Source: Ideonella sp. (lineage in GTDB: Bacteria > Pseudomonadota > Gammaproteobacteria > Burkholderiales > Burkholderiaceae_C). Taken from it: a stretch of DNA of 24,000 nucleotides. A program made the position numbers and the translations under genes. Position 1 is the stretch's first letter. Each line of letters begins with the position of its first letter. The notes under the pieces are model-generated. The model did no database searches. It was not told where the DNA came from and saw nothing but the letters and a program-made list of their open reading frames with translations. This document shows, piece after piece, positions 1,900 through 13,669 of this stretch. The stretch lies in the NCBI RefSeq assembly GCF_041287625.1, contig NZ_JBGGNH010000073.1, forward strand, positions 165,430-189,429. The letters are read 5' to 3'.

Positions 1900-3933
1900 T
1901 CAGCGCTTGCCCTTCGCCTTCACCGTCATGTCCGCCGGCGCCACCGGGCCCTTCACCGCGGCCTGGGCCAGCTTGAAGAACACGTCGGTGTTGTCGATCA
2001 CGCCGACGAAGCTGAAGGCGCCGGGGCCGAAGGCGGAGAGCGGGACGTCGGTGGCGGTGTGCACTGCCGATTCGCCGGGGACCTGGCCGGGGATCAGGAA
2101 GTTGCCCAGGCCGTCGCGTTCGGCCGGGTTTTCCGGGTACCACTTCAGCGGCTCGGCCTTCACCAGGGGCTGCTGGCTGTCCTTGACCGGCTGCGGGTTG
2201 CTGCGCCAGTCTTCGTAGCGGTCGGCATTGGCGCCGTAGGCGACCAGCAGGCGGAAGTCGATGTCGGTGGTTTCGGGATAGCCGTCGGCGGCGATGCGGT
2301 ACTTCGGGAAACCGGCTTGCTCGTAGACGCCCACCACCTTGTCGCGCAGGTTGGCCGAGCCGCCGGCCTTGCCGAGCTGCTGCAGCACCGCGTCGGTGAC
2401 GCGGCTGGCGCCGATCAGCGCAGCGCCGGAGCATTCATGGTCGGCGGTGACGATGACCAGCGTGTCGCCGCGGTCGCGGGCGAAGTCCTGCGCCACCTGC
2501 ACCGTGCGGTCGAACTCGATGGTGTCCAGCATCCAACGCTCGGTGTCCATGTTGTGCGCCTGCTTGTCAATGGACGCGCCTTCGATCATCAGCACGAAGC
2601 CTTGCGTCTGGCGGGCCAGCGTGGCCAGCGCCTTCTCGGCCATTTCGTCGAGCATGGGCTGGTCGGGGAAGCCGTAGTCGTCCACCACGCTACCGGTCAG
2701 GCCCTGCTTTTTGCCGCGTCGGCCGTCTATCTTGTCCAGCGCCACGTTCATGTTGGACAGCGAGAACAGGCCCAGCAGCTTGCCGCCCTTGGCCGCGTCC
2801 AGCTCGGTCTTGCTGGATGCGTACTGGAAGCCGGCACCCTGGAAGTCCTTGATCAGGTCGCGGTCCTTGTCCAGCGCGCCGGGCGAGATGCCCCAGCGCT
2901 TGGCGATCTCGGCGCGGTGCGGGTCGGCGGCGTCGAACACGTAGTCGGTCTTGTCGCCGCGGGCCGAGCCGGGCGTGGCAGACGGCAGGAACCACTTGCG
3001 GCCGCCGCCCATCAGCACGGTCAGCCCCGTGGCGCCGCGGTCGTCGAAGAACTGGTCGACGATGCCGGTGCCCGCGCCGCGGTTGCTGGTGTGCACCGCG
3101 TTGCCGGCCGGCGTGGCGTCGAACACATCGGCCGTGGTGACGATGCCCAGCGCCTTGCCCTGCGTGCGGTGCAGGTACTCCGAGAGGTACTCGATGCGCG
3201 GGTTGTCGAAGGCGTCCGTCGTGTCGTCCGGGAACACGCCCTCTTCATTGTTGTTGTTCTTGTTGCCCAGCACGTAGGAGGTCATGCCCGGCGAGGAGTC
3301 GGTCACCACCGAGTTCAGCGACGAGGTCTTGACCAGCGCGGTCGCCGGGAAGGTGTCCATCGCCAGCGGCGCGATGGCCTTGCCCTGCGCATAGCCGTTC
3401 TTCACGATGCGCGCCGCCGTGCGCTGCGCCGCGCCCATGCCGTCACCCAGCAGGATGATCACGTTCTTCACGGGCTTGCCCTGCGGCGTGCTGAACGGGA
3501 TCACATCGAAATTGCCCCGCGCGCTGAGCTTCTGCCCATCGTCCTGCTCGGCCTCGATGCTGAACTCATGCCGCCCGGTGGCCGCCACGCTGAAGGCGCG
3601 CAGCGAGGCAATCACCGCATTCGCCGGCACGCCGGTCGTGCAACCGCTGGCGCAGTCACGCAAGGTCACGTTCCCCGCCGCTGGCTTGCCATCCAGCAGG
3701 AAGCGCGCACCACTCAGGCTGCGGCCGGCGTCCGGCCGCAAGGTGGCTTGCAGGTCGAAGCGCTGGCCCGGCAGGAAGCGCGCAATGACCGGCTCCGGCC
3801 GGCCCGAGCTGAACAGCTCACTCGGCGGCGTGAGCCGGCTCACGCTGGGCGCTGCGATGGCGCCGAGCGGCGCCAGTGCCAGCAAGGCGATCAACTGGAG
3901 GCGGTGAATGCGGTCAGCGTTCATGGTGGGCAT
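1900..3933 (-). CDS. Secreted alkaline phosphatase (PhoA/PF00245 family) with an extra N-terminal domain
   Basis: Signal peptide MPTMNADRIHRLQLIALLALAPLGAIAAPS. Motifs present: ILLGDGMGAAQ, VTDSSPGMTSY, IVTADHECSG and AVHTATDVPLSAFGPGA. The start is ATG 3933 (alternative ATG at 3924); the track start at 4002 looks like upstream read-through. Confidence 0.9.
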   Translation of the reverse strand: MPTMNADRIHRLQLIALLALAPLGAIAAPSVSRLTPPSELFSSGRPEPVIARFLPGQRFDLQATLRPDAGRSLSGARFLLDGKPAAGNVTLRDCASGCTTGVPANAVIASLRAFSVAATGRHEFSIEAEQDDGQKLSARGNFDVIPFSTPQGKPVKNVIILLGDGMGAAQRTAARIVKNGYAQGKAIAPLAMDTFPATALVKTSSLNSVVTDSSPGMTSYVLGNKNNNNEEGVFPDDTTDAFDNPRIEYLSEYLHRTQGKALGIVTTADVFDATPAGNAVHTSNRGAGTGIVDQFFDDRGATGLTVLMGGGRKWFLPSATPGSARGDKTDYVFDAADPHRAEIAKRWGISPGALDKDRDLIKDFQGAGFQYASSKTELDAAKGGKLLGLFSLSNMNVALDKIDGRRGKKQGLTGSVVDDYGFPDQPMLDEMAEKALATLARQTQGFVLMIEGASIDKQAHNMDTERWMLDTIEFDRTVQVAQDFARDRGDTLVIVTADHECSGAALIGASRVTDAVLQQLGKAGGSANLRDKVVGVYEQAGFPKYRIAADGYPETTDIDFRLLVAYGANADRYEDWRSNPQPVKDSQQPLVKAEPLKWYPENPAERDGLGNFLIPGQVPGESAVHTATDVPLSAFGPGAFSFVGVIDNTDVFFKLAQAAVKGPVAPADMTVKAKGKR

Positions 3934-3964
3934 GGGTTGGATTGGATGAATGTCTCGCGCGAAT

Positions 3965-4417
3965 TCAGGGTTGGGCCAGCTGCAGTTCCAGCCAGGCCAC
4001 ACGCCCGTCCGGCGCCACCGTGCGCCCGTAATGCAACCTGCCCTGCAGATCGATCAACCCAGGCTGATGCGGCAGCACCCGCGACGCGTCCAGCAGCCGC
4101 ACCAGCACCGTGGCCGGCGGCAAGTCGTCCGCATCCCCATCCGCGTGCTCGCTCATCTGCACCGGCCGTGCCGTCAGCAGGAAGGCACCCGGCACTGCGT
4201 CTTCCTGCGCGACCATCCAGCCGACCAGGCGCACCTGCTGGTCCTGCGCCGCGAGCAGGCGATCGGTGGGCTGCAGGCCAGCGGCGCCGACGGGGGTCTG
4301 GAAGAAGTCGGCGAAGCGGAGGGTTTGGGCGGCGGTGTCCGCGGCTTGGGCGGCGGAAAGGCCGCAGACCAGCAGCAGGCTGCCAACGATGGAACTGAGG
4401 CGTCGGTTGTCGCGCAT
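3965..4417 (-). CDS. Secreted hypothetical protein (possibly DUF3299-like), first gene of the phosphatase operon
   Basis: ATG at 4417 gives MRDNRRLSSIVGSLLLVCGLSAAQA, a signal peptide. The gene ends 31 nt before the phosphatase start on the same strand. The family assignment is from memory only. Confidence 0.6.
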   Translation of the reverse strand: MRDNRRLSSIVGSLLLVCGLSAAQAADTAAQTLRFADFFQTPVGAAGLQPTDRLLAAQDQQVRLVGWMVAQEDAVPGAFLLTARPVQMSEHADGDADDLPPATVLVRLLDASRVLPHQPGLIDLQGRLHYGRTVAPDGRVAWLELQLAQP

Positions 4418-4457
4418 GGTGTGGGCGTAGGTCAACCGGTCATGATCGGGTGCGAGC

Positions 4458-4475
4458 ATGACAAGCCCGTGACGG
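4458..4475 (-). promoter_or_regulatory. Candidate Pho box (PhoB binding site) upstream of the phosphatase operon
   Basis: The minus strand reads CCGTCAC-GGGC-TTGTCAT, compared with the consensus CTGTCAT-N4-CTGTCA(C/T). That is 11/14 matches in the two 7-mers, about 40 nt upstream of ATG 4417. Confidence 0.3.
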
Positions 4476-4593
4476 CGAAAAACCCGGTTCGCATGGTCGT
4501 CCGGGCCGGGATTCCGCAAGGCTCAGCGGGGCTCACCAACGAAGGCCTCGGAGGCCGGTAACATCGCCCGGCCCGAGGGGAGGAGCCGGTGCC

Positions 4594-7500
4594 ATGAGAA
4601 GAATTGCATTTGCCACGCTGTACCGTGCGCAACCGCGTGAGCGGCAGTGCGTGATCGAGGTCGTCGAGTTGGACCTGCCGGCGCAGTCTGCAAGCCGATA
4701 CGTGGTGACGCTGCGCCAGGGCTTGCTCAAGGGCGGCGTGGTGCTGGACCCTCAGGAGTCTTCGCTGACCGCGAGGCCCTGCACGCTGGACGAGGCCCAG
4801 CGTCGCGCGATTGACTTCATTCAACGCCGGCTCGCCGCAGCCGAACGGCTGCAACAGCACGAGGGCCTGCCCGGCCTCGCCACTGCCGAACCGCCTGCGC
4901 CATCGAACGCCGCTGCCGTAAAGGCGCCGGCCAGTGACGCCGTGCCGCCCAGCATCGCTGCGCTGGTGGCCCGCTTCGCTCCCGAGCGCTGGCAACTGCT
5001 GCCGGCATCGCAGTGGTCCCGCGCCGTGTGGCGCGTCGCCGAATGCAGCGATGCTGCCGGTGGTGCGGGCCAGCGTGCGCTGGTGGCGCTGGTGCCGCGC
5101 CTGGTCGAACTGCTGGAGAGCGGCGACGACCTGCTGGACCTGTGCATTGCCGTGGCCGTCGCCCGGCTGGGCGACGGCGGTGCCGCGGTGGCGATGCAGG
5201 CGCTGGCAGGCCGAGGCCGCAGCCCGGCCACGCGGCGCACGGCGCACCAGGCCTGGCTGATGCTGCAAACGCCCGAGGCCCTGCGCGCGCATGCCGAGGG
5301 CCTGCTGCCCGAGTGGCAGGCCGAGGTCGAAAGCAGCGAGCGCAGCGTGGCGCAAGTCGCTGCGCTGCAGGACCGCGTGACGGCCCGCGGGCCGGGTTGG
5401 GTGCCGCTGCTGGGCGACTGGTATGACCTGGCGCTGGTGCGCCCGGCGGCGCGGGCCAGCCTGCTCGCATTGCTGGCCGAGTTGCCGCTGCAGCCCGGCC
5501 CGTTCCAGGCACTGCGCTACCTGTACAAGGCAGCCGAGATTCGCCGCGATGCGCCGGTGCTGGGCCTGCTGCATGCACGCTTCGAGAACACTCGCGCCTA
5601 TTTCAACCGCCCGGCCTACAGCGGCAACGGCTTCACCGATCCGGCCACAAAGCGCTGGGTCAAGACCCCCATTGCCAAAGAACTGAGCCGGCCCCAGCCG
5701 CGCCTGGCCTACAGCGACGCAACACGCGATTACCTGCGCCTGCGCGGCTGGCGCACGCTGCGGCGGCTGGCGGCCATCGGTCACTCGCACGCACCCGAGT
5801 TGGCGGTGCAACTGCTGCTTGGGTTGGCGGACGATGCGTTGCCAGCGGCGCGCGTGGAAGCCCGCTGGGATCGCGTCGAAGGCCGGTACCAGCGGCATGA
5901 CCGGCAGTACCACCCTGCCGCCTACTGGCTGCTGGTGCCCAAGCTGCTGCTGGCGCAAGCGCCGGGGGTGCATGTGAGCGCCCGCGGCAAGCGCTGGTGG
6001 ACCGACCAGCCGCTGGACACCAGCGCCGCGCTGCCCCAACGCAGCGAGGGCCTGCAGGACATGTGGAACGCCCACCCTGAAGCGCTGCTCGCATTGGCGC
6101 TGCAAAGCCGCAGCGCGCTGGTGCATGCGGTGGTGGCGAGGGCGCTGCAGGACCACGCCGGGTTCGTTGCGCAGCAACCGGTGGCCGTGCTGAAGGAGCT
6201 GCTGCAAAGCGCGCATGCGCCGACTGCCCGCGTCGGCTTCGAAGCCGTGCGTGCCCGCGTGTTGGCCAGCAGTGCGCTACAGGACCAGGTGCCGTGGCTG
6301 CTGCTGCTCGTGCAGAGCAGCGACGGCGCGGCCCGCGAGTTCGCCTTCGTGCACATCGCCTCGGACCCGGCCGGCTTTGCGGCGCATGCCGAACTGGTGG
6401 TGGCACTGCTGCTGTCGGCCCACGAACGCACACGGCGCCAGGGCCAGGGCCTGGCCTTGATCGCCTCGGCGCCGGCCCTGGTCAACGAACTGCAAGGCGC
6501 GCTGCTGGCCGCCGATGCCGATGCCCCGGGCCTGCGCGACGGCCTGGTGCTGGTGGAACAGTTGCTGCGCGGCCCGCTGGCCGAGGCTGCGGCGCAAGCG
6601 CCGACCGAAGCACTGCTGTGCCTGCTCGACCATGCCGACGCCGGCGTGCTGCACCTGGCCGTCGTGTGGCTGCTGCTGCATGCCCATGGCGCCGCGTTGG
6701 TGGCGCCGGCCACGCTGGCGCGGCTGCTGGTGGACGAGGACCCTTACCGCCGCGCCTCGGGTGTGCGGCTGCTCGCGGCACTGCCTGACGAGGTGCTGCG
6801 CACGCAGGCCGAGCTGCTGAGCGACCTGGCCGTGAGCCCGCATGCGGGCATTCGCGAAGCCTTGGCGCCGGCCTTGCTGCGGCTGGCGGACGACCCGGCT
6901 TTCGCCTCGGCCCTGGCCGCTCGACTGCATGCCTCGCTGTTCACCAGCGAGACCGGCGACGGCCAACACGAGGACGCGCTGCGCTGGCTCACCACCACGC
7001 TGCAGACCCATGCGCCTGCGCGCGACGCCTCGGGCGCCTGGCGCGCATTGCATGCGCAAAGCGCGGGCGCGCAGCTTTACGGCGCCTGGGCATTGGCATC
7101 TCTGCCCAGCACCGAGTTCAGCCTCAAGCAACAGGCCACGCTGGCCCGCCATGCGGACGCGGCTGTGCGCGCCTGGGCGATGGCCGCAATCGACCGCACG
7201 CTGCCGGCGGTGCCCAGCCCGGAACAGTCTGCCCAGCTCCTGCCGCTGGCCGACACGCTGTTCGACGACGCCCGCGCCTATGCCCACCAGTTGTTCGCCG
7301 AGCGCCTGCCGGATGCAGCGCTGACGCCCGAGCTGCTGATCGCCTGGGTCGACCACCCGCAGCCCTGGGTGCAGGCGCTGGGCCGCAGCCGCCTCGTGCG
7401 CCGCATGGCCGCCGGCGAGGCCAGCCTGTGCCTCACCCGGCTGAGCCAGCACCCGAGCGCCAGCGTGCAGCTCTTTGTCACGCAATGGCTGCTGGAACTG

Positions 7501-7827
7501 CCGCGGGACGACGACGCCCAGCTCGCGGCGCGCCTGCGCGAATTGACGCCCTACTTCCTCACCGTGCTGAGCCAGGTGAACCGCAGCCGCGTCGCCAAGT
7601 CCCGCATCACCGCCTTCCTGCGTAAGGCGAGCGACGCGCCGCAAGCCGCTGCAGTGGTGGCCGAGATCTTTGCGCGCCAGGTGGTGACCTGCAGCCTGAC
7701 CGACAAGCCGCAATACATCGCCGGGCTGCGCGACATTGCCGCGCACCATCCGCAGATCGCCCTGCCCTTCATCGCCTGGGCGCCGCCACCGGTGCGCAGC
7801 GCGGCCAACGCCACGGAGGGCGCATGA
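4594..7827 (+). CDS. Large (1077 aa) Leu/Ala-rich helical-repeat protein with a degenerate WGR-like N-terminal domain (MolR/YehI-like partner of SWIM proteins)
   Basis: ATG is preceded by GGAGGAG. GC3 is high throughout. The N-terminal ~90 aa have WGR-like topology (CVIEVVELDL...RYVVTLRQGLLKGG...LDEAQRRAIDFIQRRL), but the W-G-R triad reads R-Q-G. The rest is HEAT/ARM-like repetitive helices. The stop overlaps the next gene's start (ATGA). Confidence 0.75.
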   Translation: MRRIAFATLYRAQPRERQCVIEVVELDLPAQSASRYVVTLRQGLLKGGVVLDPQESSLTARPCTLDEAQRRAIDFIQRRLAAAERLQQHEGLPGLATAEPPAPSNAAAVKAPASDAVPPSIAALVARFAPERWQLLPASQWSRAVWRVAECSDAAGGAGQRALVALVPRLVELLESGDDLLDLCIAVAVARLGDGGAAVAMQALAGRGRSPATRRTAHQAWLMLQTPEALRAHAEGLLPEWQAEVESSERSVAQVAALQDRVTARGPGWVPLLGDWYDLALVRPAARASLLALLAELPLQPGPFQALRYLYKAAEIRRDAPVLGLLHARFENTRAYFNRPAYSGNGFTDPATKRWVKTPIAKELSRPQPRLAYSDATRDYLRLRGWRTLRRLAAIGHSHAPELAVQLLLGLADDALPAARVEARWDRVEGRYQRHDRQYHPAAYWLLVPKLLLAQAPGVHVSARGKRWWTDQPLDTSAALPQRSEGLQDMWNAHPEALLALALQSRSALVHAVVARALQDHAGFVAQQPVAVLKELLQSAHAPTARVGFEAVRARVLASSALQDQVPWLLLLVQSSDGAAREFAFVHIASDPAGFAAHAELVVALLLSAHERTRRQGQGLALIASAPALVNELQGALLAADADAPGLRDGLVLVEQLLRGPLAEAAAQAPTEALLCLLDHADAGVLHLAVVWLLLHAHGAALVAPATLARLLVDEDPYRRASGVRLLAALPDEVLRTQAELLSDLAVSPHAGIREALAPALLRLADDPAFASALAARLHASLFTSETGDGQHEDALRWLTTTLQTHAPARDASGAWRALHAQSAGAQLYGAWALASLPSTEFSLKQQATLARHADAAVRAWAMAAIDRTLPAVPSPEQSAQLLPLADTLFDDARAYAHQLFAERLPDAALTPELLIAWVDHPQPWVQALGRSRLVRRMAAGEASLCLTRLSQHPSASVQLFVTQWLLELPRDDDAQLAARLRELTPYFLTVLSQVNRSRVAKSRITAFLRKASDAPQAAAVVAEIFARQVVTCSLTDKPQYIAGLRDIAAHHPQIALPFIAWAPPPVRSAANATEGA

Positions 7828-9533
7828 AGTTCCAGTACCGCTACTACGGCAGCACCTCGGTCGATGCCAGCGACACCACGCAGGCCTTCAGCCTCGCGCC
7901 GGACACGCTGCGCCCGCCCACCAGCTTCCAGGGCGAGCTGCGCCGCAGCGGCGGCGTGCACCTGGCGTTCCGCGAAGCTCTGTCGGCGCTGCATTCGGTG
8001 GTGGTGAGCGACCAGCGCTACCGCGGCCGCGACCCCTCGGCCTACAAGACCTGGCTGGAGGCCAACGAGAACACGCTGCTCACGCAGTACATGCAGCAAG
8101 CGCAAACGCTACGTGCCGAGGCGAGTGCCGTCACCAGCGAGCTGAAGACCCTGCGCAACCAGAAGGACACGCTGCTGCGCCCCTTCTACATAGCCAGGCA
8201 GAAATACTTCAACTGGCTCTACCTGGCCAACCGCGACGCCTGGTACGTGTTGGACCCGGTGATCACCGTACACCCCGAGCGCCTGCTGTTCGAGGCCTTC
8301 AGCCAGGACGAGTCCAGCTACTGCGCGGTGAGCGTCAGCCACAACGTGTTCAGTCGCACTGCCGAGATGGCCTGCGGCACGACCAACATCGACTACTCCA
8401 TCGGCCTGTTCGACGAGTTCCAGAAGATTCGCGACTACAAGGCCACGAGCTTCCAGGTGGACCCGGCCGGCTTCAGCGTGGCCACCGGCAGCGACCCGGC
8501 CTTCCGCGAAGAAAAGATCGACCTGCCCGACAGCTGGGTGCGCGGCTTCCTGCAGGTCTCCAGCGCGATGACGCTGCCGGCCACCGTGCTGGAGCTGCAC
8601 CCGATGGACCTGCACAACCTGTGCGCCACCTTGCGCCAGCACAAGGAACGCGCCGGCCCCCGCTCGCTGCGCTTCGAGCTGTCGCCGGGCCAGCCGGCCC
8701 GCCTGGTGTTCGAGCCCTGGGGCATCGAACTCACGGCGCGGCGCAGCGCCATCGTCGGCACGCCGCTCAGCGAGCCACGCAGCATCCGCCTGTGGGGCCG
8801 GCGCCGGCTGCTCACGCTGGAGCGGCTGATCGCGCTCGCCACCCGCGTGCGGGTGCACCTGCTGGGCACCGGCATGCCGAGCTTCTGGGTCATCGAGATG
8901 GGCGAGATCAGCGTCACGCTGGGGCTTTCGGGCTGGACGGCCAACGACTGGTCCGCCGCCGGCCGCTTCAACCTGCTGGCACCGCGCCACACCGTGAGCG
9001 CGGCCACCAAGCAGGCCGTGGCCGCGGCGCTGCAGCGCGACTGGGTGGCCACGCCAGCCGAACTCGCCGCCCGCACTGCGCTGCCCGAAGCGGACGTGAG
9101 CGCCGCGCTTGCGCTGTGGGTGCAGGCCGGCCGCGCGGTGTACGACCTGCCGGGCCAGCGCTACGCCTGGCGCGAACTGTCGCGCGAACCTTTGCCGCTG
9201 GAAACGCTGCGCTTTGCCAGCCCCGAGGAAGACGCGGCGCTGAAGCTGGTGCAGGCGCGTGGCGGTGTCACGCTGAAGGACATCGGCGCCAGTGGCGACG
9301 GGCAGCTGCGCATCACGGGCACGGTGAAGGACGGCAAACGCGAGTTCTCGCCATCGCTGCTGCTGAATGCCGACGAACAGCTGCGCGACGCGCAATGCGG
9401 CTGCAACTTCTTCCAGCAGAACAAGCTGCGCCGCGGGCCGTGTGCGCACATGCTGGCGCTGCGTCAGGTGGCACAACCGAAGTTGAATGAAACCAGAACA
9501 CAGCGCGCCGTGACGGCTGGAGAAGCGGCATGA
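7824..9533 (+). CDS. SWIM zinc-finger family protein (YehQ-like)
   Basis: C-terminal CxCx12CxH signature CGCNFFQQNKLRRGPCAH at nt 9397-9450. The ATGA overlap with the upstream gene indicates translational coupling. GC3 is high. Confidence 0.9.
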   Translation: MKFQYRYYGSTSVDASDTTQAFSLAPDTLRPPTSFQGELRRSGGVHLAFREALSALHSVVVSDQRYRGRDPSAYKTWLEANENTLLTQYMQQAQTLRAEASAVTSELKTLRNQKDTLLRPFYIARQKYFNWLYLANRDAWYVLDPVITVHPERLLFEAFSQDESSYCAVSVSHNVFSRTAEMACGTTNIDYSIGLFDEFQKIRDYKATSFQVDPAGFSVATGSDPAFREEKIDLPDSWVRGFLQVSSAMTLPATVLELHPMDLHNLCATLRQHKERAGPRSLRFELSPGQPARLVFEPWGIELTARRSAIVGTPLSEPRSIRLWGRRRLLTLERLIALATRVRVHLLGTGMPSFWVIEMGEISVTLGLSGWTANDWSAAGRFNLLAPRHTVSAATKQAVAAALQRDWVATPAELAARTALPEADVSAALALWVQAGRAVYDLPGQRYAWRELSREPLPLETLRFASPEEDAALKLVQARGGVTLKDIGASGDGQLRITGTVKDGKREFSPSLLLNADEQLRDAQCGCNFFQQNKLRRGPCAHMLALRQVAQPKLNETRTQRAVTAGEAA

Positions 9534-9552
9534 GCACTGATAGACTTCTTGC

Positions 9553-9781
9553 GGGTGCAGCGCGTTGGCTCTTGCAATCCGGGCGATGTTTCGTCGCCCT
9601 TGCCAACCGCCTGTTCATGCGTCACGGGTGCCGTCTTCACTGTGCCGCGCTCGCGCCCTGTGCGCAATTGCGGTTGGGCTTGTCTCAAGCCAATTGGCGC
9701 ACAGGGCGCGGCGCGGCGTCGAGTGGACAGCCCCCGTCCTCGGAGCCCCTCGGGCTCTTCGATGAGAAACGCGCTGCACCC
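9553..9781 (+). ncRNA. Retron msr-msd non-coding RNA
   Basis: a1 GGGTGCAGCGCGTT (9553-9566) is the perfect reverse complement of a2 AACGCGCTGCACCC (9768-9781). GG at 9567-9568 lies directly 3' of a1 and is the candidate branching G. There is an msr hairpin GGGCGA/TCGCCC (9581-9599). The msd long stem pairs 9644-9670 with 9691-9717 (7+14+5 bp, two 1-nt bulges), and a second hairpin GAGCCC-ctc-GGGCTC lies at 9743-9757. a2 ends 29 nt before the RT ATG. Confidence 0.8.
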
Positions 9782-9810
9782 ACCCTTCCCGTTCCTGGAG
9801 CGATGGCAGC

Positions 9811-11736
9811 ATGAGCGGCGAGCGTCAACCGACCCGCGCCGAGCTGATCGCGCGCATTGCCGCGTCCAGCAAGGACGCCGTGGTGCTGAAGGAAATGCAG
9901 CGCTCGGGCTTCTGGCCGAAAGATGCCGCCGCCCCGACCGTCGAAGCCGCGCTGATCCAGCGCGAAGCCGAGCTGGTGCAGGTGCTGAACAAGCTGCAGG
10001 CCGAACTGCGCGAGAAGGGCGACCCGCAGGCCGCGCTGAAGGCCATGCGCCAGCAACGCATGGCCGAGGCCAAGGAACGCCGCGAGGCCACCGCGCAGAA
10101 GCTCGAACGTGAACGCTACGAACGCGCGCTGCAGTGGCGCGAGCGCAGTCGGCATGAGATCGGCTACCTGGGCCAGGGCGTGTCGGCCGGCTTGCAGCCG
10201 CGCCCGGACAACGCAGGCTCGCACGAGAAGCTGCAGCGCCAGGGCCTGCCATTGCTGGACACGCCACAGGCACTGGCCGATGCGATGGGCGTGCCGGTGG
10301 CCGAGCTGCGTTTCCTGGCCTTCCACCGCGAGGTGGCGCGCACGCAGCACTACCGCCGCTTCTCGCTGCCGAAGAAAACGGGCGGCGTGCGCACGATCAG
10401 CGCGCCGATGCCGCGGCTCAAGCGCGCGCAGTACTGGGTGCTGGACAACGTGCTGGCCAAGGTGACTGTGCATGCGGCTGCGCACGGTTTCCTGCCGGGC
10501 AGGTCCATCGTCAGCAATGCCGCGCCGCATGCGGGCCAAGCGGTGGTCATCAACCTGGACCTGAAGGATTTTTTCCCCAGCGTCGCCTACCCGCGCATCA
10601 AGGGCGTGTTCCGCGCGCTGGGCTACAGCGAGGCCACGGCCACGCTGCTGGCCCTGCTGTGCAGCGAAAACGTGTGCGACGAACTGCAGGTCGACGGCGA
10701 GCGCTTCTTCGTGGGCCGCACCGCGCGCGAACGTGTGCTGCCGCAAGGCGCACCCACCAGCCCGATGCTGACCAACATCCTGTGCCGCAGGCTGGACAAG
10801 CGGCTGCAGGGCATTGCCACCAAGCTCGGCTTCACCTACACCCGCTATGCCGACGACCTGAGCTTCTCGGCCTCGGGCGAGGCCGCCAGCCTGACCGGGC
10901 GCCTGCTGCGCCAGGTGCACCACATCCTGAAGGCCGAAGGCTTCACGCCGCACCCTGACAAGCAGCATGTGATGCATGCTGGCCGCCGCCAGGAGGTGAC
11001 AGGGGTTGTGGTCAACAAACAGCCCGCCGTCTCTCGCGAGCAGCGCCGTGCGTTGCGCGCCGCGCTGCACCGCGCAACGCACCAAGGCGTTGAGGCCGCC
11101 ACCTGGCAAGGCGAACCCGCCGCCCGCAATGTGCTGCTCGGCTACGCCCAGTTCGTCACGATGGTGAATGCCAGGCACGGCGCGCCGCTGCTGGCGCAGG
11201 CCAAGGCGCTGCCTTCGGCGGCCTCCGCGCCTTCGGCGATGACGAAGGCCGTGCCGTCAGGCCAGTTCCGCCGGCACGCCGCTGAAGGCAAGGCCCCGCC
11301 GCGCGCCAATGGCGCTTGGTGGCAGCCGGCGCCAAAGCCCGAGCCGGTGCTGCTGAAGACGGCGGGGCAGATCAAGGCCGAACGGCAGGCCCGCCTGGCT
11401 GAGGTGCGCGCCGAGCGCCAGGCCGCGAAGGTCACGGCGACCCAGGCCGCAACCCCTCGCCGCTTGCCGCGCACTGCCACGCCGCCTTCCGCAGCCGCAG
11501 CCAGTGACCTGCAGCAGGAGACCCACGCCCCGCTGCTGCCTCGCATGCGCTGGGAGATCGCTGCAGCCCAGGTGGCGATGCTGATCTACCTGTCGGTGCG
11601 TCTCAAGAGCCCGGGCCTCTTCATGATCGGCTCGCTGTGGCTGGGCTGGCGCGTGATGCGGCGCAAGTTCGGCTGGACGGGCTACTTCGTGGCGATGCTG
11701 GTCATCGGGGTCGCGGCGCTCATGCTGCGGCTGTAA
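9811..11736 (+). CDS. Retron-type reverse transcriptase with N-terminal coiled-coil extension and C-terminal transmembrane domain
   Basis: Motifs collinear with Ec86 RT: NAAPHAG (NAxxH), VINLDLKDFFPSV, LPQGAPTSPMLTNI, YTRYADDLSFS (YADD), QEVTGVVVN (VTG). GGAG lies 10 nt upstream of the ATG. An extra ~140 aa N-terminus is present. The last 65 aa contain 2-3 hydrophobic helices (IAAAQVAMLIYLSV, GLFMIGSLWLGW, GYFVAMLVIGVAALML). Confidence 0.93.
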   Translation: MSGERQPTRAELIARIAASSKDAVVLKEMQRSGFWPKDAAAPTVEAALIQREAELVQVLNKLQAELREKGDPQAALKAMRQQRMAEAKERREATAQKLERERYERALQWRERSRHEIGYLGQGVSAGLQPRPDNAGSHEKLQRQGLPLLDTPQALADAMGVPVAELRFLAFHREVARTQHYRRFSLPKKTGGVRTISAPMPRLKRAQYWVLDNVLAKVTVHAAAHGFLPGRSIVSNAAPHAGQAVVINLDLKDFFPSVAYPRIKGVFRALGYSEATATLLALLCSENVCDELQVDGERFFVGRTARERVLPQGAPTSPMLTNILCRRLDKRLQGIATKLGFTYTRYADDLSFSASGEAASLTGRLLRQVHHILKAEGFTPHPDKQHVMHAGRRQEVTGVVVNKQPAVSREQRRALRAALHRATHQGVEAATWQGEPAARNVLLGYAQFVTMVNARHGAPLLAQAKALPSAASAPSAMTKAVPSGQFRRHAAEGKAPPRANGAWWQPAPKPEPVLLKTAGQIKAERQARLAEVRAERQAAKVTATQAATPRRLPRTATPPSAAAASDLQQETHAPLLPRMRWEIAAAQVAMLIYLSVRLKSPGLFMIGSLWLGWRVMRRKFGWTGYFVAMLVIGVAALMLRL

Positions 11737-11824
11737 CACGGCGACCGGGCTCGGCGGCGGGGCTGCGACAAAGCGTGCACAAGTTCGCCCCGACCCGGTC
11801 TTTTGCTCACTCGCTGCCCCGACA

Positions 11825-13669
11825 ATGCGCGCCATGTTTGCGGAAGCCCCCCGTTCGCCGCCCTCCTCTTTCCTGCCTGACCTGGACCGCCTCGGCGATG
11901 AGGCGACCGACCTGGCGCTGCGCCGCGAGGCCATCCGTTTCACGATGGGGTTCGTCTGGCACAGCGTGCCGCTGATGGGACTGGTCGTGGCCATGCTGCT
12001 GTGGCTGGTGCGCCACCGGCCGGAGGCCTGGGCGCTGGCCGGGCTGGTGGCGCTGCTGGCACTGGTCAGCTGCAGCGGGCGGGTGCTGCTGCAGCGCGCG
12101 AGCCGCCAGGCGGAGCTGCAGGAGCCGGTCGAGCTGCGCCGTTTCGAGCGCCGCATGGCCTGGTACCACGGGCTCTGCTGCGCGGCGTGGATCATTGCCA
12201 CGCCGGGCGTCTATCAGTTCCTTGATTCCGAGGGGCGCGCGGTCTACACCGTGCTGCTGATCGGCTCGGCTTCGCTGTCGGGCTTCTACATGGCCATGGC
12301 CGCGCGCTGGGGCGAAGCGGTGCTGCTCTCGGTGCTGGTGCCGCTGGTGATCCAGACGCTGCTGCCCGACACTCGTTCATGGCCGATGGCACTGGTCGCG
12401 CTGGCTTTCCTGGCCGGGCTGTGGCGAGTGCTGCATGCCGTGCGGCGAACCACGGTACTGGCCATCCGCCGGGGCTTCCAGGCCAATGTGCACAACCAGA
12501 CGCTGCGCGAAGCAATGGCCCAGGCCGAGGAAGCGGCAGCCGCGAAGTCGCGCTTCCTGGCGACCATGAGCCATGAGATCCGCACGCCGATGAACGGCGT
12601 GCTGGGCGCGCTGAGCCTGCTGGGCGGCGCGCCGCTGGCGCCCGAAAACGCCAAGCTGCTGGAGGTGGCCCGGCAGTCCAGCGAAAGCCTGCTGGACGTG
12701 CTGAACGATGTGCTGGACTACTCCAAGATCGAAGCCGGCCACCTGGACCTGCACGACAACCCGGCCCAGCTGGCGCAGCTGGCCGGCGGCGTGCACACCT
12801 TGTTTGCCGCCAGTGCAGATGCGAAAGGCCTGCCGCTGAAGCTGGTGATGGCCCAGGGCCTGCCGGGCTGGATCAGCGTGGACGAACACCGGCTGCGCCA
12901 GGTGCTGATGAACCTGGTGGCCAATGCGCTGAAGTTCACGCCTGCGGGCGGCGTCACGCTGCGGTTGCGGCCGGCGGGCATGAGCGGCGGCCAGCCGCTG
13001 ATCCGCTTCGAGGTGGAGGACACCGGCATCGGCATTCCGGCCGAGCGCATGTCGCAGCTGTTCCAGCCGTTCCAGCAGGTGGACCAGGGCCACCAGCGCG
13101 CGTTTGGCGGCAGCGGCCTGGGCCTGGCCATTTCGCAGCGGCTGGTGGAGCGCATGGGCAGCCGCATCGACGTGCGCAGCGTGCCCGGCCAGGGCAGCTG
13201 CTTCGGCTTCACGCTGCGCCTGCCGCTGGCCCATGCGCCAGCCGCGCTGCCGGTGGCGCCGGTGGCGGCGGCCGCTTCGTCGCTCAGCGGGCGTGTGCTG
13301 GTGGCGGAAGACAACGCGGTGAACCTGATGATCGCCGCGCAGCTGCTGCGCGACATGGGGCTCACGGTGCTCGAAGCGCGCGACGGCGAAGAGGCGTTGG
13401 AGACCCTGCGCAGCGCCGCGGTCGACTTGGTGCTGATGGATGGCCAGATGCCGGTGATGGACGGCTACGCCGCCACGCGGGCCTGGCGCGCCCACGAGCA
13501 GGCCAACCGCATGCCGCGCCGGCCCATCGTGGCACTCACGGCCAATGCGCTGCCGGAGGACGTGCGCATGGCGCTGGACGCCGGCATGGACGACCACCTC
13601 GCCAAGCCCTACGGCCCGGGCGAACTGAAGGCGCTGCTGGCGCAGTGGCTGCCGCCCACGCCGGCCTGA
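11825..13669 (+). CDS. Hybrid sensor histidine kinase/response regulator
   Basis: N-terminal multi-TM region; H-box SRFLATMSHEIRTPMNGV; HATPase motifs (NLVANALKFT, DTGIGI, GGSGLGLAIS). The C-terminal receiver domain has VLVAEDNAVN, DLVLMDGQMPVMDG, LTANAL and HLAKP. Confidence 0.9.
   Translation: MRAMFAEAPRSPPSSFLPDLDRLGDEATDLALRREAIRFTMGFVWHSVPLMGLVVAMLLWLVRHRPEAWALAGLVALLALVSCSGRVLLQRASRQAELQEPVELRRFERRMAWYHGLCCAAWIIATPGVYQFLDSEGRAVYTVLLIGSASLSGFYMAMAARWGEAVLLSVLVPLVIQTLLPDTRSWPMALVALAFLAGLWRVLHAVRRTTVLAIRRGFQANVHNQTLREAMAQAEEAAAAKSRFLATMSHEIRTPMNGVLGALSLLGGAPLAPENAKLLEVARQSSESLLDVLNDVLDYSKIEAGHLDLHDNPAQLAQLAGGVHTLFAASADAKGLPLKLVMAQGLPGWISVDEHRLRQVLMNLVANALKFTPAGGVTLRLRPAGMSGGQPLIRFEVEDTGIGIPAERMSQLFQPFQQVDQGHQRAFGGSGLGLAISQRLVERMGSRIDVRSVPGQGSCFGFTLRLPLAHAPAALPVAPVAAAASSLSGRVLVAEDNAVNLMIAAQLLRDMGLTVLEARDGEEALETLRSAAVDLVLMDGQMPVMDGYAATRAWRAHEQANRMPRRPIVALTANALPEDVRMALDAGMDDHLAKPYGPGELKALLAQWLPPTPA

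Follow-up and report, generated by a model that had tools for sequence, protein, structure and literature searches.

The retrons Mx162 and Mx65, both of type XIII, were the first retrons ever discovered. Type XIII was defined by Mestre et al. in 2020 (PMC7736814, Table 1) as the combination of a clade-10 reverse transcriptase (RT), a SWIM protein and a 'WGR-like + HEAT/ARM' protein, and its named members are Retron-Mxa1 (Mx162), Retron-Mxa2 (Mx65), Retron-Sau1 (Sa163) and Retron-Nex2 (Ne144). The SWIM partner belongs to cluster 114_1, whose proteins have a DEDE motif and a winged helix and carry a SWIM finger of the form CxCx12CxH at the C-terminus, and the partner preceding it belongs to cluster 216_1, which combines a WGR-like domain with HEAT/ARM repeats (PMC7736814). 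We examined a stretch of 24,000 nt from an Ideonella sp. genome (Burkholderiales; contig NZ_JBGGNH010000073.1, positions 165,430 to 189,429), hereafter the window, which has a GC content of ~70%. On its + strand, positions 4594-11736 hold the genes of a WGR-like/HEAT protein and of a SWIM protein, an msr-msd noncoding RNA (ncRNA) and an RT gene. This block is very probably a type XIII retron of the Mx162 family, because all three PADLOC models of the type match it and the published definition fits it component for component.

PADLOC-DB 2.0 (2023) holds dedicated models for the three proteins. WGR_XIII matched the 1077-aa protein with E=6.6e-268 (890.1 bits; residues 1-1065 on profile positions 1-971 of 973), SWIM_XIII matched the 569-aa protein over nearly its full length with E=1.7e-215 (714.4 bits), and RT_XIII matched residues 4-505 of the RT with E=1.4e-178 (592.8 bits), the runner-up RT model scoring 347 bits. 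The RT is assigned to clade 10 by this profile score, and the related loci include those of Archangium, Hyalangium and other Myxococcota. Besides its profile match, the SWIM protein has the CxCx12CxH and DEDE residues of cluster 114_1 and a winged helix-turn-helix-like region at 378-450, and the larger protein has, as in cluster 216_1, a solenoid model that resembles HEAT scaffolds.

Every component is shared with Mx162, Mx65, Sa163 and Ne144: an N-terminally extended clade-10 RT, a SWIM/winged-helix/DEDE protein, a protein of the WGR-like + HEAT/ARM kind, and a characteristic ncRNA of ~230 nt with a long msd hairpin. The order accessory gene, accessory gene, ncRNA, RT is also the commonest one in our locus survey, which comprised 80 related RT loci from at least 8 phyla, with one genome per species. 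What sets the present retron apart is its host, a betaproteobacterium, and an RT in which a linker and a three-helix hydrophobic tail add ~130-170 aa relative to the myxobacterial-type RTs of the survey. Membrane-spanning helices, predicted here for the RT, are also found in type IV retrons (e.g. Ec48), and a membrane-directed output is conceivable for both. Type IV, however, encodes its transmembrane protein (a 2-TM effector) in a gene of its own and has a clade-3 RT, whereas in Ideonella the clade-10 RT itself carries the helices and is accompanied by two large soluble accessory proteins. No separate transmembrane gene lies within 4594-11736, and no type IV RT model was among the best 25 PADLOC matches listed.

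The co-localisation of the four elements extends well beyond Ideonella. In the 70 survey loci with at least 2.5 kb of sequence upstream of the RT, a SWIM homologue was encoded upstream on the same strand in 66, downstream in two (both Bacteroidota) and not at all in two, so that a co-oriented SWIM gene stands beside the RT in 68 out of 70. These loci come from Pseudomonadota, Myxococcota, Acidobacteriota, Bacteroidota, Cyanobacteria, Planctomycetota, Verrucomicrobiota and Bacillota. A WGR-like homologue was recovered by tblastn in 39 out of 63 loci, and the distant loci lacking such a match presumably carry other HEAT/ARM clusters of Mestre et al., who also reported co-evolution of RT and accessory proteins (PMC7736814). 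The four elements are one co-inherited retron system, and the functional association put forward in the preliminary description, which had asked whether RT homologues generally keep such neighbours, stands.

Among close relatives, the RT is 100% identical to a protein of an Ideonella sp. metagenome-assembled genome (MAG), and the WGR-like protein shares 94% identity with one of Ideonella azotifigens. The flanks in I. azotifigens are identical (M56 peptidase, alkaline phosphatase, ORF of ~205 aa, the block, hybrid kinase, metal hydrolase). The same block was found between entirely different genes in L084, the closest metagenomic relative, whose RT is 81% identical. In L084 a 241-aa ORF without a Pfam match (11893-12618) overlaps the RT stop by 4 nt; it is absent from the window.

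Another SWIM gene lies on the opposite strand of L084 (12628-16719, -), ~700 nt downstream of its type XIII retron, and forms a pair of a 450-aa SWIM protein with a 910-aa DUF6493/DUF7824/DUF7825 protein. Such pairs have neither RT nor ncRNA, and their SWIM protein lacks the coiled-coil insertion of the retron protein; the L084 copy shows 26% identity to the Ideonella SWIM protein over residues 144-552 (E=4e-24). The partner, of ~900 aa with DUF matches only, is SWIM-adjacent like the WGR-like/HEAT protein, and BLAST detected no similarity between the WGR-like/HEAT protein and this DUF6493-type partner. This arrangement suggests a wider module of a SWIM protein with a large DUF/helical protein as the origin of the accessory pair of type XIII.

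The coordinates of the features are collected in the table below. The three + strand ORFs (1077, 569 and 641 aa), the 14-nt a1/a2 repeat, the ATGA shared by the WGR-like stop and the SWIM start at 7824-7827, and the spacings of 19 nt from the SWIM stop to a1 and of 29 nt from a2 to the RT start codon were all reproduced as first described. Ribosome-binding sites were found 5' of the WGR-like protein ATG (GGAGGAG) and ahead of the SWIM-protein start, upstream of the ATGA overlap (GGAGG), and the SWIM gene is translationally coupled to the WGR-like/HEAT gene through this overlap. A scan of 4300-12000 found no terminator-like site on the + strand, and none had been noted between the elements on reading the sequence. 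The WGR-like gene, the SWIM gene, the msr-msd ncRNA and the RT gene are a single operon, since no internal + strand terminator was found and the accessory genes overlap. A sigma-70 promoter scan found none, and at 70% GC such a scan is uninformative.

Features of the retron block and their positions in the window, with the basis of each assignment
Feature	Position (nt)	Strand	Basis
Type XIII accessory protein 1 (cluster 216_1-like)	4594..7827	+	PADLOC WGR_XIII, AF2 model
WGR-like N-terminal domain (residues 1-90), disordered linker (98-114), ~930-aa HEAT/ARM alpha-solenoid with beta-rich insertion (~340-480)			
Type XIII accessory protein 2 (cluster 114_1-like)	7824..9533	+	PADLOC SWIM_XIII, Pfam SWIM, AF2 model
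DEDE region D144-x7-E152-x4-E157-x32-D190-x38-E229	8253..8510	+	Alignment A2; motif in PMC7736814
SWIM zinc finger C525-x-C527-x12-C540-x-H542	9396..9449	+	Read from translation
msr-msd ncRNA	9553..9781	+	Perfect 14-nt inverted repeat, nhmmer profile match
a1 (GGGTGCAGCGCGTT) and a2	9553-9566, 9768-9781	+	Perfect 14-nt inverted repeat
msr stem-loop, 3 bp + 8 bp stem	9574..9603	+	RNAalifold helices 1-2
Long msd hairpin, predicted msDNA stem template	9624..9737	+	Inverted repeats I1, I2; helices 3-8
Type XIII (clade 10) RT	9811..11736	+	PADLOC RT_XIII, Pfam RVT_1
Invariant W503-W504	11317..11322	+	RT alignment A1
C-terminal hydrophobic tail, RT residues ~581-641	11551..11733	+	Kyte-Doolittle scan, alignment A5

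The retron ncRNA that had been proposed from its a1/a2 repeat was borne out by the repeat itself, a stable fold and covarying msr and msd. A long-range repeat of 14 nt was reached in 1 out of 500 shuffles of the region, and one of 10 nt or more in 2% of them (approximately dinucleotide-preserving shuffles, made with our own swap routine). The predicted fold of the 246-nt element has a free energy of -142.4 kcal/mol (z = -8.9), which none of 200 shuffles matched. Perfect inverted repeats of at least 10 nt with arms 150-260 nt apart were present in 53 out of 71 SWIM-to-RT intergenic regions, in many of which the repeat starts a few tens of nt past the SWIM stop; the sequences of the arms vary by lineage and the interior blocks are conserved. 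Homologous elements adjoin myxobacterial, acidobacterial and Bacteroidota type XIII RTs, and altogether the Ideonella element can be aligned with the ncRNAs that accompany type XIII RTs in seven phyla and has the same consensus structure as these.

RNAalifold was run on an alignment of 20 sequences across phyla. In msr helices 1 and 2, paired cells made up 96.7% and 99.4%, and 5 of the 11 pairs showed compensatory changes; the msd helices 3-8 showed such changes in 24 out of 28 pairs, giving 29 out of 39 for the whole consensus. The fraction of paired cells was 88.7%, versus 36-48% when partners were slid, and the covariation score was 0.54, versus 0.09-0.18 in the slid controls; the observed values were reached in 0 of 500 shuffles. 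An nhmmer profile of the element found a single copy in the window (9554-9782, + strand only) and copies in 50 out of 84 other loci, always on the same strand and upstream of the RT. Two G residues, G9567 and G9568, lie directly 3' of a1, and one of them is the candidate branching G; in those related loci that were inspected by eye, a G likewise stood no more than 1-2 nt from a1. Rfam gave no match at the gathering threshold, and a relaxed Rfam scan returned only chance miRNA-hairpin matches to the msd stem, with no family that fits the ncRNA.

Variants of the ncRNA region were seen in other loci. Some Acidobacteriota and Bacteroidota have 2-3 tandem type XIII ncRNA copies upstream of a single RT gene (nhmmer E 1e-13 to 1e-46; L019 1031-1523, L021 2260-3060, L022 9346-9893, L026 7369-8043). 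In four cyanobacterial loci (L030, L034, L040, L072) the ncRNA lies beside the SWIM stop, 1-2.3 kb upstream of the RT. The gap in L040 (a cyanobacterial MAG, 7447-10001) is occupied by an NYN-domain nuclease gene (8264-9052) and by a gene for RNase III with a double-stranded RNA-binding domain (9241-9954), whose products are candidate ncRNA-processing enzymes inside the retron operon; the gap in L030 holds a 302-aa ORF without a Pfam match.

The RT has an N-terminal extension (residues 1-~140) and an RVT_1 domain at 187-400 (Pfam). Its NAxxH (N236-A-x-P-H240), YADD (346-349; nt 10846-10857) and VTG (396-398) motifs are all invariant in RT alignment A1, and its closest relatives in the Protein Data Bank (PDB) are retron RTs, with Ec86 RT at 1.9e-40. 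A membrane domain on the RT had been suggested from the translation, and the Kyte-Doolittle scan indeed revealed a strongly hydrophobic C-terminus, which is kept in homologues: it forms three hydrophobic helices over the last ~60 residues and occurs in 115 of the 120 closest RT homologues (52-100% identity, Burkholderiales). These tails align without internal gaps (A5); helix 1 contains an invariant Gln, and helix 3 is preceded by a basic patch and an invariant Trp. Across the 80 loci, core type XIII RTs stop ~125 aa past YADD, and an extension of hydrophobic helices was found only in proteobacterial RTs, i.e. in Burkholderiales, Methylobacterium and Vibrionaceae. The tail is confined to this proteobacterial subclade and therefore cannot serve as the effector for type XIII as a whole.

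A profile of the tail alone, searched against 1.84 billion representative proteins, gave 20 matches, of which 15 were inspected (2 full-length RTs and 13 retrieved sequences). The tail module appears specific to this proteobacterial RT clade, because these inspected matches were all RTs or C-terminal fragments of RTs; for the same reason the idea that a stand-alone membrane protein family was recruited as the tail was found unsupported. A CPP1-like Pfam match of the tail was dismissed as well: it did not reach the cut-off and is probably due to hydrophobic composition.

Many RTs of Myxococcota, Acidobacteriota and Bacteroidota end differently, with a low-complexity linker followed by a conserved, cationic-aromatic terminal peptide, 'KKKWWKLF/W'. 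A C-terminal WWK[LVF][FW] was present in 16 out of 80 loci and related WW termini in 3 more (together L008-L011, L013-L015, L017, L019, L022, L025-L028, L031, L033, L041, L046 and L065), and two Bacteroidota RTs among these end in DWWNI[LF]S. W503-W504 is the internal counterpart of this terminal WW pair, retained in the membrane-tailed Burkholderiales RTs. The KKKWWKLF/W peptide could be a membrane-targeting or partner-docking peptide; we take KKKWWKLF to resemble the C-terminal membrane-targeting peptides of MinD and FtsA. That WWKLF might be a PIP-box-like clamp-binding peptide is at most a remote chance, as no resemblance of its sequence to PIP or beta-clamp motifs was found.

We then considered the accessory proteins. 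The AlphaFold2 (AF2) model of the WGR-like protein has a mean confidence (pLDDT) of 90.4, with an N-terminal domain predicted as beta-beta-beta-beta-alpha-beta, and its best Foldseek matches were CAND1, PP2A-A and karyopherin-beta2. No catalytic domain was seen in the HEAT solenoid, which is probably a scaffold, judging from this model. The Pfam WGR model (PF05406) gave no match for the full protein, nor for residues 1-99 at E<=10. The term 'WGR-like' of the preliminary description is thus kept as a fold-level and annotation-level label only: the PADLOC WGR_XIII match and the predicted N-terminal fold agree with it, and the Pfam model does not. Pfam as a whole likewise returned nothing for the WGR-like protein, the NCBIfam scan returned nothing for either accessory protein, and no related structure was found for either one in the PDB by sequence.

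In the SWIM protein, the Pfam SWIM domain was called at residues 517-546, barely above the cut-off. All four zinc ligands (C525, C527, C540, H542) are invariant in A2, an alignment of 59 SWIM homologues, and fit the CxCx12CxH signature of type XIII; D144, E157 and D190 are also invariant, and E229 nearly so. The AF2 model is of moderate confidence (pLDDT 74, pTM 0.67) and predicts an N-terminal PCNA-like two-domain clamp fold of ~370 aa, a winged helix at ~378-450, a beta domain at 482-524 and the SWIM finger, in this order, with a coiled-coil insertion (residues ~71-135) within the predicted clamp region (window 7824-8933). In the PDB, each of the best 50 Foldseek matches was a PCNA chain or a complex that contains PCNA (lowest E 6e-9, probability 1.00, TM-score 0.50-0.61 normalised to PCNA, ~260 aligned columns), and in BFVD nearly all of the named top matches were viral PCNA, DnaN or herpesvirus processivity factors. 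Clamp matches thus dominate two independent Foldseek libraries; identity to clamps is, however, just 8-14%, and the predicted clamp region has conserved acidic residues that are absent from them. Sequence profiles of the SWIM protein gave sub-threshold matches to the TFE winged helix only, at 382-438. On the strength of the model, the N-terminal two-thirds of the protein is predicted to adopt a PCNA-like clamp fold.

Neither experimental work on the function of type XIII, experiments on its accessory genes included, nor a functional or structural study of their proteins was found in the literature searched; therefore, the steps proposed here beyond the synthesis of multicopy single-stranded DNA (msDNA) by the RT draw on analogy or on predicted folds. 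According to general retron biology, the a1/a2 duplex would place G9567 or G9568 just 3' of a1 as the 2'-OH primer, and the RT would copy the msd leftwards starting at ~9767, yielding a branched msDNA of ~140-165 nt made mostly of the 9624-9737 hairpin. The SWIM protein, with three predicted modules of nucleic-acid-binding kind (clamp fold, winged helix and SWIM finger), probably binds the msDNA, and the HEAT solenoid would probably scaffold a complex of RT, msDNA and SWIM protein. By analogy with other retrons, such a complex may stay silent before infection, and a disturbance of the msDNA or of the complex by an infecting phage would then bring about growth arrest. The three-helix tail of the RT would anchor the complex in the inner membrane, or might possibly act as the effector. 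In the preliminary description the WGR/SWIM pair would read or guard the msDNA and the membrane domain of the RT would be the executioner; such a tail does exist and is kept in homologues, though within the proteobacterial subclade alone. The identity of the components, their co-inheritance and the structure of the ncRNA were established from the window and the related loci; each mechanistic step we regard as about evenly balanced at best.

Four other explanations were weighed against a type XIII retron that answers to phage. The preliminary description had taken the block for a genuinely new retron type, with a WGR/SWIM pairing never before linked to retrons; no such type was known to it, and the absence of a Pfam WGR match and the empty NCBIfam result would agree with novelty. 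The claim fails, and novelty is hardly tenable, when three PADLOC models of type XIII match at E<=1e-178, Table 1 of PMC7736814 lists precisely the same composition, and a survey of 2026 counted 143 type XIII candidates. It is also very improbable that the WGR-like/SWIM pair is an independent module that merely adjoins a retron: SWIM homologues do occur without an RT, next to a different large helical protein, as in the L084 pair, but the presence of a co-oriented SWIM gene beside 68 out of 70 RTs over eight phyla, the start of the ncRNA a few tens of nt past the SWIM stop in many loci and the reported co-evolution of RT and accessory proteins (PMC7736814) all argue against chance.

The two remaining explanations accept the type XIII retron and concern what it does. 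Mestre et al. read the DEDE region as a transposase-like motif and placed type XIII among the nuclease-associated retrons (PMC7736814), and their proposal would make the SWIM protein the effector, as a DEDE-type nuclease; the RT tail would then only localise the complex. The conservation of the acidic residues across the 59 homologues and the fact that most type XIII RTs have no tail agree with this; yet the residues sit in a predicted non-catalytic PCNA clamp fold rather than in an RNase H-like transposase fold, and the D-to-D spacing of 46 residues is, in our own judgement, short for classical DDE cores, which leaves a nuclease as a possible but doubtful reading. The clamp prediction has its own weaknesses, and these, with the points that follow, count against the mechanism set out above: it comes from one AF2 model with pLDDT 74, the Foldseek TM-scores of 0.5-0.6 go with an rmsd of 6-10 Å, and PCNA was undetected by sequence profiles of the SWIM protein. 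The tail helices, in turn, were called from hydropathy alone. The main alternative to a phage-triggered response is that the same type XIII retron has been domesticated for a housekeeping or regulatory role (e.g. in DNA or membrane-associated transactions) rather than for abortive infection. A domesticated, non-defence role was raised by Mestre et al., who found a moderate correlation of 0.78 between type XIII and host 16S and vertical inheritance in Myxobacteria (PMC7736814). The locus also lacks mobile-element hallmarks, with no integrase or transposase seen nearby, it is syntenic between two Ideonella genomes, and neither accessory protein has a recognisable toxin domain. Against domestication, phage defence is, according to the retron papers, the role of every retron type characterised by experiment, the relative with 81% RT identity has the block in a different context, as would fit a mobile accessory module, and the conserved acidic residues of the SWIM protein could form a nuclease site. 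We consider domestication rather unlikely on this evidence, and keep phage-triggered action as a proposal made by analogy.

The finding is chiefly a correct rediscovery of type XIII from raw sequence. A transmembrane segment in type XIII RTs is not mentioned by Mestre et al. (PMC7736814), and both the membrane tail of the RT and the clamp fold of the SWIM protein are apparently undescribed in the literature searched. A wider proposal would be that a large proteobacterial branch of type XIII (Burkholderiales, with independently shaped tails in Methylobacterium and Vibrionaceae) encodes integral-membrane RTs, that, given these tails and the KKKWWKLF peptides of many other RTs, membrane tethering of the msDNA-making complex is an overlooked trait ancestral to the Mx162 family, and that the SWIM protein is an msDNA-gripping PCNA-like clamp and not a transposase-derived nuclease; taken as a whole this is speculative and unlikely to hold in full. 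If true, type XIII would sense DNA by means of a membrane-associated machine built on a clamp, and no retron characterised so far would resemble it. The RT tail, and the predicted clamp fold where a transposase-like motif was proposed, could guide the first mechanistic experiments on this type.

Finally, we looked at the genes that flank the block. An alkaline phosphatase gene lies upstream on the opposite strand (1900-4002, -), and between it and the retron a 184-aa ORF (3965-4519, -) is divergent from the retron operon, without a match in Pfam, NCBIfam or PADLOC. The 'Pho-type phosphatase operon' that had been described here was overstated, as there is a single divergent phosphatase gene and this one ORF without assignment. 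The ORF (annotated as 205-207 aa in I. azotifigens) is kept in Ideonella and not in L084, and is probably not part of the retron system. The earlier remark that no integrase or transposase marks the borders holds for the 18 larger window ORFs that were scanned, none of which had such a domain. Downstream, 88 nt 3' of the RT, lies a gene for a hybrid histidine kinase/response regulator (11825-13669, +), whose PADLOC SduA match was dismissed, as it covers only the receiver domain. No terminator was detected in the gap between RT and kinase, so read-through co-transcription is possible; the pairing is not conserved, being present in I. azotifigens and absent from L084.

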